Origin: a phage
Sequence record: PZ445407.1
DNA: 47,731 nucleotides
Reading direction: 5' to 3' (one strand)
Under the pieces are notes generated by a model. The model ran no database searches. It had not been told where the DNA came from and worked only from the letters and a program-made list of their open reading frames with translations. Below, one piece after another: positions 506 to 45,510 of the stretch. Position 1 is the stretch's first letter. The number at the start of each line of letters is the position of its first letter. Position numbers and translations under genes: made by a program.

Positions 506-1768
506 ATGGTCAAGACAGACAGCTACGCCAATATCTTTCTCGGCGGCAGTGATGGTAGTGAGATTTACGGGAGTTTGCAGAATCAGGCGCCCACAATTCT
601 GGCCTCGCTTTATGCTGACAATGCTCTGGTGCGTCGAATTATCGACACAATACCGGAGACAGCATTAGCGGCAGGATTCCACATTGATGGTATTGATGAT
701 GAATCTGAATTCTGGTCTCACTGGGACGACCTGGAGCTAACAAAACACATCAATGAAGCCTGGTCATGGGCTAGATTGTTCGGTGGGTCTGCAATTGTTG
801 CTATCGTTAAGGACAATAGGGCGCTAACAAGTCCGGTCAGAGAAGGTGCCGAGCTTGAAACGGTTCGCGTTTACGACCGCACACAAGTAAAAGTACAAAC
901 CCGAGAGGAGAACCCACGCAACTCGCGCTTTGGTAAGCCGCTAACCTATCGCATCACAACAAACGAAAGCGATATGTTCTATGATGTGCATTACACCCGC
1001 ATTCACATCATTGACGGAGAGCGAGTCCCTAACGTAATGCGCCGTCAGAATGATGGATGGGGTAGAAGTGTTCTTTCTAGTGATATTCTTGACTCAATCA
1101 AGGATTACACGAACTGTGAACGACTTGCCACGCAATTACTGAAGCGTAAGCAGCAGGCGGTCTGGAAGGCGAAAGGGCTTGCTGAGTTGTGTGATGACAG
1201 CGAAGGATTTGGCGCGGCTCGATTACGACTTGCTCAGGTTGATAACAATAGTGGCGTGGGTCAGGCAATTGGCATTGACGCAGAATCTGAAGAGTACAGT
1301 GTTCTAAACTCTGATATCGGCGGGATTGATGCGTTTCTGGATAAGAAGTTTGACCGAATCGTTGCTCTGAGCGGCATTCATGAAATCATCCTGAAGAACA
1401 AGAACGTTGGCGGTGTATCTTCAAGCCAGAATACGGCGCTTGAGACATTCCACAAGCTGGTTGACCGCAAGCGTAATGCTGAGCTTCTGCCTATTCTTGA
1501 GTTCTTAATCCCGTTCATTGTTAATGTAGAAGAATGGTCAGTAGAGTTTAATCCTTTAGCGCAGGAGTCGAGCAAGGATAAAGCAGAGATTCTGGAGAAG
1601 AACGTAAACAGCATTGCGGCACTAATTGCAGCTGGCGCTATGGATACTAACGAGGCTCGTGATACACTACGAACTATCGCACCAGAGATTAAGATTGGTG
1701 ATGGAAATATCGAACCTGAAGAACCATCTAAGGAAGTAATCGCGACGACAGAGGAATCTAATGAATGA
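506..1768 (+). CDS. portal protein (putative)
   Basis: ~420 aa ORF immediately downstream of the terminase genes across the junction; ATG 506 preceded by ggag; position-based call. Confidence 0.55.
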   Translation: MVKTDSYANIFLGGSDGSEIYGSLQNQAPTILASLYADNALVRRIIDTIPETALAAGFHIDGIDDESEFWSHWDDLELTKHINEAWSWARLFGGSAIVAIVKDNRALTSPVREGAELETVRVYDRTQVKVQTREENPRNSRFGKPLTYRITTNESDMFYDVHYTRIHIIDGERVPNVMRRQNDGWGRSVLSSDILDSIKDYTNCERLATQLLKRKQQAVWKAKGLAELCDDSEGFGAARLRLAQVDNNSGVGQAIGIDAESEEYSVLNSDIGGIDAFLDKKFDRIVALSGIHEIILKNKNVGGVSSSQNTALETFHKLVDRKRNAELLPILEFLIPFIVNVEEWSVEFNPLAQESSKDKAEILEKNVNSIAALIAAGAMDTNEARDTLRTIAPEIKIGDGNIEPEEPSKEVIATTEESNE

Positions 1769-1801: not shown

Positions 1802-2890
1802 ATGTATAAAGTCCGCTATGACAGCGCAAAGTTTAAGGCAACAATCGACGAGAATGGATTCTTAGTCGATACGCCTGTGGTAGCGCGCCTCGGCGTGCAA
1901 GTCTACTACATGGAGGATGGTCGCACGGTTCGAGAGTTTCGCCCAGCAGAGGAAGTTTTCAAGGATGAATCCCTCGCAAGCTACCAGGGTAAGCCAATGA
2001 CCCTGGATCACGTCTTCGTTAACTCTGAGAACGCTAAAGAGGTGGTAGTAGGTTCAGTTTCTGGCAAAGCTGAACCTCTTGGCAGTTCAGTGGTTGCGCC
2101 AATCGTTATTTACGACAACGCAGCCATTCAGGAAGCTATGGCAGGTAACGCCAAGGAGTTGTCAGTCGGATACTCTGCAATTCTTGACGAAACCCCAGGA
2201 TGGGGAGACCCTGCTACTGGCGAGTACATCCTTAAATCTGATGCTGATGAGAAATTCGATGCACCAGAAGGATGGCAGGAGTTCGACGCAATTCAGCGTG
2301 ACATTAAAGTGAACCATCTCGCAATGGTATATCGCGGTCGCGCAGGTATTGCCAAATTGAATATGGACGGTGAGCAGGAAAACCCGTATACTACTGACGT
2401 TGATATCAATAAAGAGGATAAACAGGAAATGATTAAGATTAAACTCGACGGCGCGCAGGAATTTGAGGTCGCACCGGAAGTCGCTTCTCACATCGAAGCG
2501 CTGAACGCAAAGGCTGATACCGCAATCGCAGAGCGCGACGCACTGAAAGCTAAAGTAGACGCAATGCCTGCCGAAATCGAGGCTGCCGTAGCTAAAGCTA
2601 AAGCAGACGCTGAAGCACTAGCTGCCCTGGTTGCTGTTGCCGCTGAAGCTGGTGTGAAAGCTGACGGTCTGGATGCTAAAGGCATTAAAGTTGCTTACGT
2701 TAAAGAAGTCTCCGGCCTTGATGTTGCTGAGAAATCCGACGCGTACATCGACGCAGCGTTCGACATTGCCAAAGATTCTGATAAAATGGCTGAAGTACGT
2801 AAAGCAACTAACGCTTCCAACAAATCTGACAGCGCCGATGAGCCTAAGAAATTAGACCCGCGTGCTCGTTTAGCTAAAATTAAGAAATAA
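1802..2890 (+). CDS. head morphogenesis / scaffold-like protein (putative)
   Basis: ATG 1802 after gaggag; Ala/Lys/Glu-rich C-terminal region typical of scaffold coiled coils; lies between portal and capsid. Confidence 0.4.
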   Translation: MYKVRYDSAKFKATIDENGFLVDTPVVARLGVQVYYMEDGRTVREFRPAEEVFKDESLASYQGKPMTLDHVFVNSENAKEVVVGSVSGKAEPLGSSVVAPIVIYDNAAIQEAMAGNAKELSVGYSAILDETPGWGDPATGEYILKSDADEKFDAPEGWQEFDAIQRDIKVNHLAMVYRGRAGIAKLNMDGEQENPYTTDVDINKEDKQEMIKIKLDGAQEFEVAPEVASHIEALNAKADTAIAERDALKAKVDAMPAEIEAAVAKAKADAEALAALVAVAAEAGVKADGLDAKGIKVAYVKEVSGLDVAEKSDAYIDAAFDIAKDSDKMAEVRKATNASNKSDSADEPKKLDPRARLAKIKK

Positions 2891-40274: not shown

Positions 40275-40814
40275 ATGAATCAGATGTACACCATGATTAA
40301 GCAACACCTGAACACCGAGGCAATCAACAAGCCAGTCTACGTGTTTGACTACGACGGCACGCTGTCGGACGGATCGCATCGCTTGCATAAGTTGCCGACA
40401 AAGGATTTACACCTCACTGAGTCATGGTCTGAATTCAATCGACTGTCAGAATATGATGAACCTATCGAATCAACCATTCAGGTGATGAATAGCCTGTACG
40501 ACTCTGGCGCATACATCATCATCCTAACCGGGCGGTCAGACGAGGTGTGTGAAATTTCGACTCAGTGGCTTCATGATGCTAAAGCAAAATATAACGTAAT
40601 GGTCATGCGCCAGGCTGATGACAACAGAAAGGATACAATCATCAAAGAGGAGTTCTTGCGCTACATTGGCTTGCATCGAATTACGGCAGCATTCGATGAT
40701 AGCCCTAACGTGGTTGCGCACTTCCGAAGCCTGGGCATCACTACCTATCAGGTTTGCGACTATGGCGATAAGCTACACGCTGGAGTCGGATCGCATGGCG
40801 TTCATCATAAGTGA
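40275..40814 (+). CDS. HAD-superfamily phosphatase / nucleotidase (putative)
   Basis: HAD motif I VFDYDGTL and later D-rich motifs. Confidence 0.5.
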   Translation: MNQMYTMIKQHLNTEAINKPVYVFDYDGTLSDGSHRLHKLPTKDLHLTESWSEFNRLSEYDEPIESTIQVMNSLYDSGAYIIILTGRSDEVCEISTQWLHDAKAKYNVMVMRQADDNRKDTIIKEEFLRYIGLHRITAAFDDSPNVVAHFRSLGITTYQVCDYGDKLHAGVGSHGVHHK

Positions 40815-40934
40815 CGATATACGAACATAAATTCAGTAGCAGGGGTATTGATATGCTCCTGCACTATGTAGACGAAAAATACGCAAATCTCATGCTTAAG
40901 ACGCATGGTGGCACAATAACGAGGATTAACATCA

Positions 40935-41567
40935 ATGGCTAAAATAATCATTCTTAATGGACCGGCAGGTATTGGAAAGGACACTATCGGAAACGCGCTT
41001 GCAGCAGATTACAATTGCAACCTGGTAAGTTTCAAGCGTCCTATGTTTGATATCGCATCCTCAATACTAGGCGCTTTAGCCTTCAGCAAATTCATCACCG
41101 CTTATAATGACCGAGATCAGAAAGAGCGTCCTCAGGAATTTCTTGGTGGAAAGACATGCCGTGAGTTCATGATCTGGATTAGCGAATCAGTAGTTAAGCC
41201 GCTTTTAGGCGATAGGCAGTTCGGTAAGTTGATGAGCGAACATATCCAGATGCGTGACGAAGGCTTTACGTTTGTTTGCACTGATGGCGGTTTCCCTGAT
41301 GAGGTTATTCAGCTAGTGGAAGATGGACACGATGTTACCCTTGTACGCTTATTTATGGATGGTAAGACATTCGCTGGCGATAGTCGTGATTACATCCGAA
41401 TCAAGGAATCGCACTTCCCTGATTACCATGCCTACCAGGAGCATGATGTTCATCTAGTCAATGGTGATATTTATGGCGGTGTTCTGTCGGTAGCTGATGC
41501 TTGCGGTATTGGCTCACCAGTTCCAGAGGTTGATGTTTACGAGTGGGAAGATGGATTACCCTGGTAA
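40935..41567 (+). CDS. P-loop nucleotide/nucleoside kinase (dNMP-kinase-like, putative)
   Basis: Walker A GPAGIGKDT at N-terminus. Confidence 0.5.
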   Translation: MAKIIILNGPAGIGKDTIGNALAADYNCNLVSFKRPMFDIASSILGALAFSKFITAYNDRDQKERPQEFLGGKTCREFMIWISESVVKPLLGDRQFGKLMSEHIQMRDEGFTFVCTDGGFPDEVIQLVEDGHDVTLVRLFMDGKTFAGDSRDYIRIKESHFPDYHAYQEHDVHLVNGDIYGGVLSVADACGIGSPVPEVDVYEWEDGLPW

Positions 41568-41568
41568 A

Positions 41569-41610
41569 TAGCACGAATCGCCAAAGCCGCTCCGGCGGGT
41601 TTTGTTATAG
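41569..41610 (+). promoter_or_regulatory. palindrome-type promoter variant with terminator hairpin in spacer (TAGCA-N5-CGCCA, TATAGT)
   Basis: Direct read; hairpin ccgc tccg gcgg + T-run inside spacer. Confidence 0.4.
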
Positions 41611-41643
41611 TTAGTTCACACCAAACGAGAGGAAGTAGAAGAA

Positions 41644-41835
41644 ATGATTACAATTAACCTGTCAGAAGAAATGGCTGCTGACCTTATTGATTCACTAAGC
41701 CTGGTTAAAATTCGATACGGGACTTACAACAGAAGCGAATCAATAAAGGAAGTGGTAAAGCAAGTTAAACAGCAGGTCGAAGCGGCCAAAATCGAATTGC
41801 AGAACACCCCATACGATTTTAATAAAGGTGAGTAA
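41644..41835 (+). CDS. hypothetical protein (MITINLS paralog 1)
   Basis: N-terminus MITINLSEE. Confidence 0.4.
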   Translation: MITINLSEEMAADLIDSLSLVKIRYGTYNRSESIKEVVKQVKQQVEAAKIELQNTPYDFNKGE

Positions 41836-41836
41836 G

Positions 41837-42055
41837 ATGATTACAATTAACCTGTCAGACAAGCAAGCAGCAGAACTTAAATCCATGTTATCAATCTTTG
41901 AGAAGCCAAATGACCGAGCAATTGCAAAAGAGGTTATCTCTCAGATCAACAACCAGCAATTCGACGTCAGTGACTTCGAGTCATCACGTCAATATGAAGC
42001 GATGAGTGTCAACGCTGCATACCTGGTTAACTGGGATAAGGCGACTAAGCAATGA
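41837..42055 (+). CDS. hypothetical protein (MITINLS paralog 2)
   Basis: N-terminus MITINLSDK; tandem duplicate. Confidence 0.4.
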   Translation: MITINLSDKQAAELKSMLSIFEKPNDRAIAKEVISQINNQQFDVSDFESSRQYEAMSVNAAYLVNWDKATKQ

Positions 42056-42189
42056 TTTACGTTCACACTTACTACACTGCAAAGTTTAATAGCGTGAAGA
42101 ATGTTAGTGTTCACGAAAGCTACGAGAGCGCAAAAGCTCAATGGTTGGTTCTCGGCGGTGATATTAATTCATATAGAGTCGATGAATAG
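42052..42189 (+). CDS. hypothetical small protein (45 aa)
   Basis: Hand-translated; ATGA overlap. Confidence 0.25.
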   Translation: MIYVHTYYTAKFNSVKNVSVHESYESAKAQWLVLGGDINSYRVDE

Positions 42190-42228
42190 CAAGAATTGCT
42201 AAAACAGCATTGGGGTAATTTGTTATAG
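42186..42228 (+). promoter_or_regulatory. palindrome-type promoter (TAGCA-N5-TGCTA, 22 bp, TATAGT)
   Basis: Direct read; leader TACCCCATAGAAACGAATGAGG. Confidence 0.55.
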
Positions 42229-42259
42229 TTACCCCATAGAAACGAATGAGGAAGAAGAG

Positions 42260-42472
42260 ATGAAAATTGAAATTATCGACGTGGATTACCAGGTGGACCA
42301 GGAAATTCCTACTCTGCGCGACTGTGGTTTCCGGGTTGGAGATATAGTAGAGGTGATTGGTTACTACGATGATGGCGACATTTCAATCCCTGCAATCCGT
42401 GAGACTGAGTTCGCCAATATCGGAGATGAAATCAGTATTTGCGAGCATGAATACAGGGGGGTAGAGAAATGA
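42260..42472 (+). CDS. hypothetical protein
   Basis: Behind conserved promoter/leader. Confidence 0.4.
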   Translation: MKIEIIDVDYQVDQEIPTLRDCGFRVGDIVEVIGYYDDGDISIPAIRETEFANIGDEISICEHEYRGVEK

Positions 42473-42651
42473 TTAAGTTCGAGCAAAGCGAACCTAAGCT
42501 ACAGGCTAACCACTTCGATGGCTACTCAACATTCATCATTGCCCAGGCGTACGGAATGCGTGAAGACCCACAGGTCCACACAATCCACTTAACCGAAGAG
42601 CAGGCTAGAGAGTTGGCTTACGAAATTCTAGAGCAATTGAATAAGATTTAA
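42469..42651 (+). CDS. small acidic protein (paralog family with 39135 and 39456)
   Basis: C-terminal EQARELAYEILEQL. Confidence 0.4.
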   Translation: MIKFEQSEPKLQANHFDGYSTFIIAQAYGMREDPQVHTIHLTEEQARELAYEILEQLNKI

Positions 42652-42700
42652 CGCGCCTAAAACGCACTATGACGAAAGATAATTTAAGTAAGGTGATTCT

Positions 42701-42871
42701 ATGATTAAAGCTGTTTTTGTTGCTGAGGATGACGATTATCTAGGCCTAAAGACACATGACGTGATCTATGTTGAACCATTAAAAAATGGTGATGGCTATA
42801 TCTACACTGATAAATTTGGCGTGCGTCTTTTTATTGAGCGATGGGAAATTGAGGAGATTAGTGGTGAGTAA
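42701..42871 (+). CDS. hypothetical small protein (56 aa)
   Basis: Hand-translated; RBS aaggtg. Confidence 0.3.
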   Translation: MIKAVFVAEDDDYLGLKTHDVIYVEPLKNGDGYIYTDKFGVRLFIERWEIEEISGE

Positions 42872-42986
42872 CGAAAGCCCCGTAGAGTGGTGCAAGAGAA
42901 TGCAGGACGAGGCCAAGACGAGCGAAGAGGCAATGGCTTACTACGAGCTTGCGAAAATGTGGATGGAGCGGGAGAAGAAGGAATGA
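42864..42986 (+). CDS. hypothetical small protein (GTG start)
   Basis: RBS gaggag; overlaps neighbours. Confidence 0.2.
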   Translation: MSNESPVEWCKRMQDEAKTSEEAMAYYELAKMWMEREKKE

Positions 42987-43126
42987 GCTTCACTGAATAT
43001 GTTATCGCATGTGAGAGAATTGTGTTTGACATGAAAACCTTTCACTGGTTCATCATTAAGGATTTAATCAAGCCTTATAAGCAAGGCGTTACGCCAGAAC
43101 AGTTTGTTAAGTCATTCTATAAATAA
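42983..43126 (+). CDS. hypothetical small protein (47 aa)
   Basis: ATGA overlap. Confidence 0.25.
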   Translation: MSFTEYVIACERIVFDMKTFHWFIIKDLIKPYKQGVTPEQFVKSFYK

Positions 43127-43152
43127 TCTTATCAGAAAGAGAGAGAAACAAA

Positions 43153-43350
43153 ATGTGGATCAACATTAAAGAAGAGATGCCTGGCAGCGAGGATGTTTTG
43201 GTTTATTGCTCAGACACAAGAGAGCAGATGGTTGGGTTCCACAAGGGGAGAGGTCTTTTTCAGTTCTTTTTCATGAATGGGGTGGAGGGAGTTTGCAAAC
43301 CAACGCATTGGATGCCGCTACCAGAAGGTCCAGATAGCACGAATTGCTAA
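43153..43350 (+). CDS. hypothetical protein
   Basis: ORF track, RBS agagagag. Confidence 0.4.
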   Translation: MWINIKEEMPGSEDVLVYCSDTREQMVGFHKGRGLFQFFFMNGVEGVCKPTHWMPLPEGPDSTNC

Positions 43351-43377
43351 ACACGCTCGCCACGGATGGCATATAAT
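43335..43377 (+). promoter_or_regulatory. palindrome-type promoter (TAGCA-N5-TGCTA, 22 bp, TATAAT)
   Basis: Direct read; near-duplicate of junction copy. Confidence 0.55.
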
Positions 43378-43407
43378 TACCCCATCAACACAACGAGAGA
43401 TTGAGAG

Positions 43408-43647
43408 ATGTTTGGATTAAATGAAGCGATGTTTAATGCTGTAAAGCGCCAGGCTAAAAAGCTCAACGATAAGTATGAGACACTAAGCAAACTGGACCGC
43501 AAGAATGACAAGCTAGTTGCTGGAGTTATAACTGAGATTTGGCAGCCCGTTTCTACGGTAATCAGCAGAGATCGCTTTGTGTGGGTAGCTGGTTACTTGC
43601 GAGGCCGGGTTGGTCACGACGAGAATGGGAATAGCCTTTATGAGTAA
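43408..43647 (+). CDS. hypothetical protein
   Basis: Behind conserved promoter/leader. Confidence 0.4.
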   Translation: MFGLNEAMFNAVKRQAKKLNDKYETLSKLDRKNDKLVAGVITEIWQPVSTVISRDRFVWVAGYLRGRVGHDENGNSLYE

Positions 43648-43747
43648 GTTTATTGATTGTGTTATTTACGCGTGGTGCTTGGCGCTGGCTTCAGCCTCGG
43701 TTATGTTAATAATTGCTGCGATTATGATGATGGGTGGGTATGTATGA
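43640..43747 (+). CDS. hydrophobic micro-ORF (35 aa, MSKFIDCVIYAWCLALASASVMLIIAAIMMMGGYV)
   Basis: Hand-translated; overlaps both neighbours. Confidence 0.3.
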   Translation: MSKFIDCVIYAWCLALASASVMLIIAAIMMMGGYV

Positions 43748-43932
43748 GTAATTGCAACAAGCACCACTATTACTACGCATACGAGTCGAAATTGGAGAAG
43801 TCTGACATTGATGGGATTAGATATGGATGGGCTGACGCAACGGCGCCATGCATCTTCGTAGGAATGAAAATGGCATTCTACGTTTGCAGTAAGTGCCACA
43901 ACATACTTATCACCGAGAGGCTGAGTAAATGA
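43744..43932 (+). CDS. zinc-ribbon-like protein (paralog 1; C.KHHYYY...C.KCH)
   Basis: Cys/His spacing shared with 43994..44230. Confidence 0.4.
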   Translation: MSNCNKHHYYYAYESKLEKSDIDGIRYGWADATAPCIFVGMKMAFYVCSKCHNILITERLSK

Positions 43933-43997
43933 GTGAACTAACAATCTGGTTTATCGCAGGGCTGGTTACTTGGGCTTACTTTATGGAGGCAGCATGA
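43929..43997 (+). CDS. hydrophobic micro-ORF (22 aa, MSELTIWFIAGLVTWAYFMEAA)
   Basis: Hand-translated; ATGA overlaps at both ends. Confidence 0.3.
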   Translation: MSELTIWFIAGLVTWAYFMEAA

Positions 43998-44230
43998 GAA
44001 CATTGAGGCAGATTTTAAACGGATGCAAGAAGCATCATTACACTTACTTTCGTGACATTAAATGGTTCGAGGATGCTAATCGTTTAGATGGCTACAAGAC
44101 AAAGTTAATATGCAAGAAGTGCCACCATGTTGAGAACAGTAAGGTAGATATGATGATTTGCCGTAGCACACTCGACGAAGTTCATTATGCAAAGGCCAGA
44201 AGGCTCAAAAAACTAGTTGCCAGACCGTAA
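43994..44230 (+). CDS. zinc-ribbon-like protein (paralog 2)
   Basis: CKKHHYTY...CKKCH pattern; RBS ggagg. Confidence 0.4.
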   Translation: MRTLRQILNGCKKHHYTYFRDIKWFEDANRLDGYKTKLICKKCHHVENSKVDMMICRSTLDEVHYAKARRLKKLVARP

Positions 44231-44244
44231 TTGTTAAAAAGAAC

Positions 44245-44273
44245 TTGCACCACTGACCGGAATTATATAATAT
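44245..44273 (+). promoter_or_regulatory. sigma70-like promoter (-35 TTGCAC, 17-bp spacer, -10 TAATAT) driving non-coding region and tRNA
   Basis: Hexamers read directly from sequence. Confidence 0.4.
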
Positions 44274-44279
44274 TAACCA

Positions 44280-44640
44280 CGTAGACAAACGAGGCCACTA
44301 AGTGGCAACGGCGCACGGAGCGCACTACGCGGTAAGTCCGCTGCTCATTAAGTAGCGTATGCGGCGCATCTGGTCCATGAGGATAAGGCGTAAACCTCAA
44401 CCAACTTCCCAGTATGGGCTTTATTCCCTTAGGGACTTGAAGACCTAGCGCAAATAGGCCGACATGGTCCAAGTCGAAAAAACTGACCAGACCTGAGCAC
44501 GTCATTAAAAGAGCTTTCTGTTAATCGGTCGTTTCAGGCGACCCCGGAGCCGTAACCGGGATTTATATGGGTGGCATTTATGTCATCTTGTAAATTGGTC
44601 GTAAAGGCGACCCCGGAATCATAACCGGGACTCATTCAAA
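44280..44640 (+). ncRNA. candidate structured non-coding RNA / tRNA precursor leader with duplicated double-hairpin unit
   Basis: No convincing ORF; GC-rich; two ~34-nt direct repeats (44527..44562 and 44596..44630) each forming two 5-bp hairpins. Confidence 0.3.
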
Positions 44641-44718
44641 GCTCTGCTAGCTCAATTGGATAGCAGCAACGACCTTCTAAGTCGTAGGTTACTGGTTCGA
44701 ATCCAGTGCGGAGCGCCA
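44641..44718 (+). tRNA. tRNA-Arg (anticodon UCU), CCA encoded
   Basis: Acceptor stem GCTCTGC/GCGGAGC, anticodon stem ACGAC/GTCGT with loop CTTCTAA, canonical T-arm GGTTCGAATCC, 3' GCCA. Confidence 0.8.
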
Positions 44719-44745
44719 AATTAAACCAATAATCCTGGGGGATTT

Positions 44746-44928
44746 ATGAAAACTGTAACATTCATCGTAAAAGATTCAGGGACGGGAACCGTTCAGAAGT
44801 TTAACGCGAAATTAACCTACAACAAAGGTGGAAGTAAAGAAGTTAGAGGCTCACTGGGCGGCGTGATGGTTGAGGCTCGACTCCCGATTATCTACCCTGA
44901 TGACGAGCGCCGCAATGTGGGACGTTAA
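44746..44928 (+). CDS. hypothetical protein
   Basis: ORF track; RBS gggg. Confidence 0.35.
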   Translation: MKTVTFIVKDSGTGTVQKFNAKLTYNKGGSKEVRGSLGGVMVEARLPIIYPDDERRNVGR

Positions 44929-45097
44929 ACTTTCAATCAGACTAATGGGCCGAAGTTGCAAGAATTGCACTCAAGATTATATCGCGTCAGTTGCCGCAAT
45001 CAGCGCTGAGGATGCGGTAGCGAAAGTAAAAGAGTTGTCAGGCGCTGATCCAGACACTCACAAATTCCTGGTAGCTTACGTTCGTGAGCGAAAGTAA
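44915..45097 (+). CDS. hypothetical protein
   Basis: ATG 44915 in frame of track ORF 44870..45097. Confidence 0.35.
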   Translation: MWDVKLSIRLMGRSCKNCTQDYIASVAAISAEDAVAKVKELSGADPDTHKFLVAYVRERK

Positions 45098-45141
45098 AAA
45101 GTGTTATACCCTCGTTAAGTTCCGTTTCTCTCGTTGTTTTT

Positions 45142-45165
45142 AGCCCTCGCTTGAGGGCTTTTTTT
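45142..45165 (+). terminator. rho-independent terminator
   Basis: agccctc-gctt-gagggct + TTTTTTT. Confidence 0.6.
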
Positions 45166-45175
45166 CGCCCGCATG

Positions 45176-45204
45176 TTGACAACAATATATAGGTGCATTA
45201 GTAT
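45176..45204 (+). promoter_or_regulatory. sigma70-like promoter (-35 TTGACA, 17 bp, -10 TAGTAT)
   Basis: Hexamers read directly. Confidence 0.45.
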
Positions 45205-45245
45205 TAACTCATCGGGGCGACCCACTAACCAGAAGGAGATTCAAA

Positions 45246-45482
45246 ATGATTACATTAAAAGCAATTCACAAAGACGGTAGCGAGCAGGTTTTTGAAGTTA
45301 AGAATTTTGGCTACAGAGCTACGCAGAACCGTATTGATGCTGTTGATTGCGATTGCCAACCTTTCAGTATTTACCTTAATGATGACTCAGTTGCTATTGT
45401 GTACGCAATGAACTCAAGAGGGGCAACTATTGGTAAATACTCTCTTATTGAGTCGGTAGGACTACGAGATTACATATCTTAA
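45246..45482 (+). CDS. hypothetical protein
   Basis: Behind canonical promoter, RBS aaggag; terminator follows. Confidence 0.45.
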   Translation: MITLKAIHKDGSEQVFEVKNFGYRATQNRIDAVDCDCQPFSIYLNDDSVAIVYAMNSRGATIGKYSLIESVGLRDYIS

Positions 45483-45486
45483 ATTA

Positions 45487-45510
45487 GAGCCCCTTAATTG
45501 GGGCTTTTTT
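45487..45510 (+). terminator. rho-independent terminator before terminase genes
   Basis: agcccc-ttaatt-ggggct + TTTTTT. Confidence 0.55.

Follow-up and report, generated by a model that had tools for sequence, protein, structure and literature searches.

The array of micro-protein and Cys/His genes between a T1 gp59 homologue and tRNA-Arg in Escherichia phage JulesPiccard

How did two hydrophobic micro-proteins and two small Cys/His proteins come to alternate in a single run of overlapping phage genes? We take up this question for Escherichia phage JulesPiccard (Bas03 in the BASEL collection; Drexlerviridae, Braunvirinae; record PZ445407.1), the window analysed here being its complete genome of 47,731 bp. 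On its + strand, micro-protein A (35 amino acids, aa; 43640..43747), Cys/His protein Z1 (62 aa; 43744..43932), micro-protein B (22 aa; 43929..43997) and Cys/His protein Z2 (78 aa; 43994..44230) follow one another directly, and an earlier note on this DNA, made from the sequence alone, had described them as a tandem duplicated two-gene cassette, with two units of identical architecture each pairing a hydrophobic peptide with a zinc-protein partner. The coordinates of these four open reading frames (ORFs) and the ATGA overlaps at the three internal junctions (A/Z1, Z1/B and B/Z2) were confirmed in the sequence, and the coupled run was found to hold five genes, not four, as it opens with a 79-aa gene (hereafter the anchor; 43408..43647, + strand) whose stop overlaps the start of A through ATGAGTAA.

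Module assortment at the locus

The anchor is a conserved core gene (PHROG 303; phrog_303, E 1.2e-25) with tblastn matches in 827 phage records, and its homologue in phage Rtp, rtp15, carries the annotation "similar to phage T1 gp59". Using the anchor as a reference point, we read the genes that follow it in about 27 loci, revealing at least 15 module combinations between this gene and a conserved flank made of a promoter-like element and a tRNA-Arg. The four-gene order A-Z1-B-Z2 of JulesPiccard has its counterpart in L035, a Logan contig in which all four copies have diverged (A'-Z1-B-Z2), while A also appears in the shorter arrays A-B-Z2 (PCEc3, DTL) and A-B (EC3a). Combinations that lack A include B-Z2 (AugustePiccard, JeanPiccard, BEK1-1, T145P1), Z1-B (IME253, SU57), B alone (Rtp, the vv12210I group, UViG290), and several arrays with another hydrophobic micro-protein, C, namely Z1-C-B (FP), C-B-Z2 with an in-frame stop in Z2 (phiA2-1) and C-B with a stop at codon W15 of B (IME542); a second Logan contig (L036, from ERR4678691) has Z1, the same W15-interrupted B and a Z2 variant. 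B itself is missing from contig L037 (Z1, then a 63-aa non-zinc module), from ES (C, another hydrophobic peptide, a Z1-like protein, then a 65-aa module) and from CY1 (a Z2-like gene alone). Among the Rogunavirinae, Opt-79 has a Z2-like gene and then B, and Rogue1 and e4/1c have a 64-aa module and then B. No hydrophobic micro-ORF follows the anchor in T1, MezzoGao or PaulSarasin.

Because every module occurs without its supposed partner among these loci, the A-Z1-B-Z2 alternation reads as mosaic assortment and not as the duplication of a two-gene unit, and the obligate peptide/zinc-protein pairing put forward in the earlier note does not hold. Z1 stands directly after the anchor, with no micro-ORF in between, in IME253, SU57, FP and two metagenomic contigs; at least five phages have Z1 and lack A, and four have A and lack Z1. 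Both micro-proteins persist without any zinc protein in EC3a, and B does so in Rtp, UViG290 and the vv12210I group (43 records, host tally). For B and Z2 the separation is partial: a Z2-like gene occurs without B in CY1, upstream of B in Opt-79 and behind a nonsense-codon B in L036, and in every array with Z2 in second place B or what is left of it stands in front. The earlier note had named micro-ORFs lost or frame-disrupted beside persisting zinc-ribbon genes as the result that would refute it, and this result is seen for A-Z1 and in part for B-Z2.

A recurrent non-zinc module of 63-67 aa stands in for the zinc proteins in some phages (L030 1131..1334, T1 ST58; L007 1377..1574, ES; L037 1383..1574; L021 1014..1208, Rogue1). 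It starts MANLPKKGDQVRCV... in T1 and MSKVKKGDVIKCV... in L037, with a common core ...VEKV...IDYP....

Comparing the two supposed units directly, we found no sign of a recent copy. A and B gave no BLASTP alignment at E<=100, pairwise MAFFT produced no real alignment of the two units as DNA, and the longest direct repeat between them is 15 nucleotides (nt), in the CxKCH codons. An alignment of Z1 with Z2 covers 54 residues at 28% identity and has 15 gap positions. Profile comparison of the two by hhalign at first (6 versus 23 sequences) aligned only 11 columns, the CxKHHYxY knuckle, and became informative once the Z1 family had been enlarged; with both families enlarged it spanned 51 columns and both knuckles (probability 80.5%, E 1.3e-5). 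A Z2-family profile built without the window copy ranked Z1 second of 779 six-frame genome segments (E 0.018), and the reverse search did not recover Z2. Given that rank and the 51-column alignment, the Cys/His motif common to the two proteins, which the earlier note had pointed out and which we confirmed in the sequence, goes beyond chance. Each protein nevertheless has far closer kin in other phages, Z1 being 84% identical to its IME253 counterpart and Z2 85% to that of AugustePiccard (Drexlerviridae, Braunvirinae; the nearest relative of JulesPiccard in the phage collection), and from this combination of distant mutual homology and closer outside relatives we infer that Z1 and Z2 probably represent two long-separated branches of a single family and did not arise by a duplication in JulesPiccard. 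With A and B unrelated, Z1 and Z2 only distantly homologous and the modules not inherited together, neither the tandem duplication nor the identity of the two units can be maintained.

We interpret the array as the variable distal end of a translationally coupled accessory operon, assembled from independent modules in a recombination hotspot of Braunvirinae and Rogunavirinae, a reading to which we give a probability of about 0.75. The hotspot lies between the T1 gp59-homologue core gene (43408..43647) and the conserved promoter, leader and tRNA-Arg, and draws on a small repertoire of at least three unrelated hydrophobic micro-protein families (A, B, C), one Cys/His family (Z1, Z2) and the 63-67-aa non-zinc module. 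Ribosomes ending on each gene would re-initiate on the next, such that all four products could come from one mRNA; A and B would each enter the host inner membrane as a single helix; zinc may be bound, one ion per protein, by Z1 and Z2 via a His plus Cys/His and a CxxC; and the very basic Z2 might then attach to nucleic acid or to a protein of the host. As is usual in such hotspots, the four genes would be dispensable and would serve host takeover, exclusion or counter-defence.

Micro-proteins A and B and the Cys/His family

Micro-protein A, which corresponds to the GenBank annotation bas03_0083 (exact protein match), has the product MSKFIDCVIYAWCLALASASVMLIIAAIMMMGGYV and is strongly hydrophobic (grand average of hydropathy, GRAVY, 1.73), with no charge in residues 7-35, a stretch long enough to span the membrane in a single pass. 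EC3a, PCEc3 and PsgS01F are the only phages with homologues of it, apart from DTL and L035, which have a diverged form of 31 aa. Relative to the EC3a/PCEc3 orthologue there are 16 nucleotide substitutions, 10 of them at third codon positions, and these cause 4 amino-acid changes in the A frame versus 11 and 14 in the other two frames. The longer alternative ORF over A, annotated as a 'putative membrane protein' in EC3a, is disfavoured, as it is the frame that would take 14 changes. Judged by this substitution pattern, A is protein-coding and under purifying selection.

The records of PsgS01F (a Pseudomonas phage; PP134917.1) and A110b (a Campylobacter phage) carry this E. coli Drexlerviridae region, and PsgS01F shares with Escherichia phage PCEc3 both its length of 44,679 bp and its match statistics. 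The P. syringae and C. jejuni host labels may be wrong, or the preparations contaminated.

Micro-protein B (MSELTIWFIAGLVTWAYFMEAA), which is without annotation in JulesPiccard, is also strongly hydrophobic (GRAVY 1.12); over residues 4-22, a membrane-spanning length, its single charged residue is E20, a position held by V or I in relatives. No other module of the array is conserved as widely. B has tblastn matches in 106 phage records of the Braunvirinae and Rogunavirinae, the weak matches among them being backed by synteny (checked in 21 loci), and in 21 of the 24 loci first examined its start is intact and its length 18-22 aa. Across 17 distinct sequences, the ratio of nonsynonymous to synonymous differences per site (pN/pS) was 0.24 in the B frame (pS 0.39, pN 0.095) against 1.13 and 3.13 in the other frames, variable columns numbered 11, 4 and 14 at codon positions 1, 2 and 3, and residues E3, W7, G11, W15 and F18 were invariant. 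The Rogunavirinae form (MTELSIWFLAGMLTWIYF...) differs from the window copy in 15 of the 54 nt of codons 1-18 and retains E3, W7, G11, W15, Y17 and F18. On these comparisons B, too, is protein-coding and under purifying selection, and the statement of the earlier note that the micro-ORFs are real is borne out by frame-specific selection on both.

Looking for B beyond these phages, we found none of four exact 21-22-aa variants in a collection of 15 billion proteins. A host homologue or prophage origin was considered and set aside, with 0 matches to a degenerate B DNA pattern in 185,579 bacterial and archaeal genomes; in IMG/VR the same pattern returned 6 contigs only, several of them phages already examined. 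None of the annotations of relatives that we examined calls B at 21-22 aa, the exception to its absence being a 44-aa N-extended call in EC3a (Ec3a_13; L003 1678..1812), whose 'putative membrane protein' crosses A in another frame and covers B. In Opt-79, a 43-aa ORF in a different frame is annotated over B (OPT79_80; L020 1218..1349). Both calls are likely wrong in start or frame, the short frames of A and B agreeing better with the pattern of substitutions.

Two otherwise different relatives, IME542 (L019, about 1819..1872) and L036 (about 1383..1448), have a stop in place of the same B codon, W15 (TGG to TGA), and in the latter the Z2 variant downstream of the interrupted B is intact. The shared stop could be a coincidence, as few B codons are one step from a stop, or it could be a leaky UGA decoded as Trp. 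With this TGA in two relatives and the gene gone from a few others, B is not indispensable.

Both Cys/His proteins are annotated in JulesPiccard (exact protein matches), Z1 as bas03_0084 and Z2 as bas03_0085, and have in common the pattern C-x-K-H-H-Y-x-Y ... C-x-K-C-H. Within the Z1 family the signature is (C/H)x1-2H-x-Y-x-Y ... F-Y-x-C-x2-C, with H7, Y9, Y11, D21, F45 and C51 invariant in an alignment of 21 members, C48 nearly so, and the first ligand either C or H. The Z2 family carries C-x2-H ... C-x2-C, with K13, H14, C40 and C43 invariant in 27 members and C11 nearly invariant, CY1 having an H-x-H arrangement instead. The pattern of four conserved Cys/His ligands in two knuckles is kept in both families, and a single zinc site would produce just such a (C/H)x1-2H ... 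CxxC arrangement. The proteins differ in charge, Z1 being nearly neutral and Z2 strongly basic (19 K+R versus 8 D+E).

Neither protein had a sequence match in Pfam, PHROG, NCBIfam or PDB, whether single proteins or whole family alignments were searched, and none of the 27 Z2-family members rose above a Pfam gathering score, the best being Stc1 at 18 bits against a cut-off of 24.8. An exhaustive profile search of 1.84 billion proteins with the Z2 hidden Markov model (HMM) returned 12 representative clusters, all of them short proteins of the same family, and fell short of Z1. The label 'transcriptional repressor' on the homologues in CY1 and TR1-3 is an unsupported record annotation that we did not adopt. 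As judged from these searches, Z1 and Z2 probably constitute an orphan, phage-only family of small Cys/His proteins with two diverged branches.

Gene overlaps and competing explanations

Evaluating the overlaps across the genome, we counted 24 ATGA junctions between ATG-initiated ORFs of at least 20 aa on the + strand of the window, including those at 42052, 42469 and 42983 just upstream of the array; in AugustePiccard, the annotation coordinates give 12 adjacent pairs of coding sequences with a 4-nt overlap, concentrated in clusters of small genes. The ATGA overlap is the default junction of the small-gene clusters of JulesPiccard and no mark of special pairs. Co-translation by stop/start overlap is plausible from the sequence, and to this extent the earlier note's argument from the preserved overlap stands, but with such overlaps generic in this genome they do not single out the partners.

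The junction between B and Z2 was compared with that of 14 relatives. Sequence is common up to B codon 18 (...TGGGCTTACTTT) and resumes at ATTGTTAAAAAGAGCTTGCA, which belongs to the conserved promoter-like element; between these points, from B codon 18 to the conserved ATTGTTAAAAAG, lies a segment (43983..44229, + strand) made of a new B 3' tail plus Z2 and present only in relatives that carry Z2. Where Z2 is lacking, the B tail is TTAATCG(T/C)TTAG, giving L-I-V or L-I-A and a stop; where it is present, the tail reads M/L-V/E-A-A and a stop, and its codons hold GGTGG or GGAGG 4-5 nt before the Z2 ATG. The JulesPiccard copy of this motif, a GGAGG Shine-Dalgarno sequence read at 43985..43989 (+ strand), sits inside the last codons of B. 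Because the tail differs with and without Z2, we conclude that the Z2 segment rewrites the B tail and brings its own ribosome-binding site. At this junction RNA structure analysis found no covariation and a fold no more stable than that of shuffled sequences (z = +1.07).

Against the hotspot reading, the duplicated-cassette explanation, under which each membrane peptide and its zinc partner would act as a toxin/regulator or toxin/antitoxin-like pair, can point to an alternating architecture and ATGA overlaps that do exist, to the probable distant homology of Z1 and Z2, to the A'-Z1-B-Z2 order in L035 and to the B or B remnant in front of every Z2 placed after B. It is nonetheless very unlikely, given unrelated micro-proteins, no DNA repeat between the units, and each half of each pair found without the other or, as in Opt-79, in reversed order. 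The earlier note's likening of the units to small toxin/regulator pairs also found no backing: no toxin family was matched (for A and B, nothing in Pfam or NCBIfam at E<=1 and nothing below E 0.06 among PHROGs), a consensus scan of 40500..45500, which could miss a weak promoter, detected no minus-strand promoter-like site, and Rfam matched nothing but the tRNA.

B could instead be mainly a leader or coupling ORF that delivers ribosomes to Z2, its peptide having no function, and the ATGA overlap, the Z2 ribosome-binding site inside the B tail and the variation of the last 3-4 B codons with downstream content all fit this. Yet B is the last gene of the operon in Rtp, EC3a, IME253, SU57, FP and the vv12210I group, leaving nothing to couple, its amino-acid sequence is kept across two subfamilies with the low pN/pS and five invariant residues given above, and no conserved RNA structure hides the Z2 start; we consider this quite unlikely. 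It is hardly credible that A and B arose as chance ORFs in intergenic or overlapping sequence, leaving Z1 and Z2 as the sole genes, even though the two micro-ORFs are very short and B is unannotated in the relatives examined (save the EC3a call), is broken by a nonsense codon in two and is missing from a few more, for selection is specific to the A and B frames, B keeps its start and length in nearly all of the loci first examined, the alternative long frame over A fares worse than A itself, and the start/stop overlaps are retained in every context. An explanation that grants B a function would make it a hitherto unrecognised, clade-wide membrane micro-protein of 21-22 aa acting on a host inner-membrane machine, for instance as a block to superinfection or to a membrane-associated defence, with Z2 grafted onto it to form a functional pair made in fixed ratio; as a whole this seems unlikely, and a functional B-Z2 partnership in itself is possible.

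Returning to the array as a hotspot end built from independent modules, we see several points that weigh against it. The A'-Z1-B-Z2 order recurs in one other contig, L035, and the full array could be ancestral with losses elsewhere, a history that would still involve no cassette duplication; added to this is the constant presence of B or its remnant before a Z2 in second place. AlphaFold2 models of the Cys/His proteins are of low confidence, that of Z2 (22 sequences; three strands and a C-terminal helix) having a mean predicted local distance difference test score (pLDDT) of 54 and that of Z1 (only 3 sequences; all-helical) one of 57, and the low-confidence Z2 model had no Foldseek match in BFVD at E<=0.001. 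Finally, a host-takeover or counter-defence role of the modules would be assigned by analogy with other hotspots.

Flanking elements, related systems and value of the locus

On the left, a sigma-70-like promoter (TAAACA-18 nt-TATAAT; 43348..43377, + strand; 10/12 matches in a consensus scan) lies about 30 nt upstream of the five-gene run. Its element GCTAAAC...GGCATATAAT is also found 5' of the anchor in AugustePiccard, IME253, JeanPiccard, ES, CY1 and UViG290, and is replaced by an abutting gene in other relatives. Just 5' of this promoter is a gene for a 65-aa DUF551 protein (PF04448, E 3e-13; 43153..43350).

The right bound of the variable array is a promoter-like element (TTGCAC-17 nt-TAATAT; 44245..44273, + strand) conserved in 12 aligned loci, and beyond it a conserved leader precedes tRNA-Arg(TCT) (44641..44718). 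The stretch between array and tRNA (44244..44640) is unannotated, conserved and noncoding, measuring 196 nt in most relatives and 397 nt in JulesPiccard through two insertions. Its first hairpin (44293..44306) reads GCCAC-TAAG-GTGGC in the window and CCATC-CAAG-GATGG in IME253, SU57, DTL and vv12210I, with 3 of 5 pairs changed on both sides and the pairing kept, and its 3' module, GGTCGT..GGCGACCCCGGA..TAACCGGGA, occurs twice in the window (44527..44561 and 44597..44630) and once in 11 aligned relatives. Rfam matched the tRNA solely; the stretch looks like a structured tRNA leader or a small RNA.

Silas et al. (bioRxiv 10.1101/2023.04.06.535777) described phage accessory regions, in which small accessory genes form hypervariable hotspots between core genes; their text makes no mention of T1-like phages, Drexlerviridae or zinc proteins. 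None of the array modules has a known counter-defence or trigger phenotype. The JulesPiccard locus is like such regions in its variable content between conserved flanks (the T1 gp59-like gene on one side, promoter and tRNA-Arg on the other), and its modules are likewise small and probably dispensable, and close relatives have exchanged or lost them.

Small phage zinc-finger and zinc-ribbon proteins include P2 Ogr and P4 Delta (PF04606) and the C4 fingers of the DksA/TraR type. Z1 and Z2 resemble them in having 60-80 aa and two metal-ligand knuckles 25-45 residues apart, and the very basic composition of Z2 is common in proteins that bind nucleic acid or RNA polymerase; unlike the proteins named, Z1 and Z2 have a first knuckle of C-x2-H, C-x-H or H-x-H instead of CxxC, match no Pfam model at threshold and have only the low-confidence models given above. 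Translational coupling through ATGA or TGATG stop-start overlaps is an established general mechanism in phage operons, and the four consecutive overlaps of the run, with ribosome-binding motifs for B and Z2 in the ORFs upstream, are nothing unusual among these.

Small membrane proteins such as KdpF, AcrZ, MgtS and CydX, and the type I toxin peptides Ibs, ShoB, TisB and Hok, offer a comparison for the micro-proteins. As in these, A and B (35 and 22 aa) are almost wholly one hydrophobic helix, and as with most genes for small membrane proteins they were missed or only partly annotated. In contrast to these groups, A and B show no sequence relationship to any member, B has no basic residue at all, and both genes sit in a coupled operon of a lytic phage; the consensus promoter scan, which could miss a weak promoter, showed no antisense RNA signature. 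Bacterial small membrane proteins of 50 aa or fewer have been reviewed (PMC12648545). A literature search found no transcriptomic, ribosome-profiling or functional study of the array genes or of this region in Drexlerviridae.

The feature is ordinary in kind, an accessory hotspot whose genes are tiny and coupled. Two of its elements are modestly new, the widely conserved 21-22-aa membrane micro-protein B and the orphan family of small Cys/His proteins. It has no bearing on a long-standing open question, and its value lies mainly in annotation and as a resource. For annotation, it adds a 21-22-aa gene, B, in about 100 sequenced T1-like coliphages, miscalled in frame or start in at least two of them (EC3a and Opt-79). 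As JulesPiccard belongs to the BASEL collection and infects E. coli K-12, each module is open to direct deletion or expression, and the hotspot 3' of the T1 gp59 homologue, small in extent and sharply bounded, offers three membrane micro-protein families and an orphan zinc-protein family in which to seek new phage host-interaction factors.

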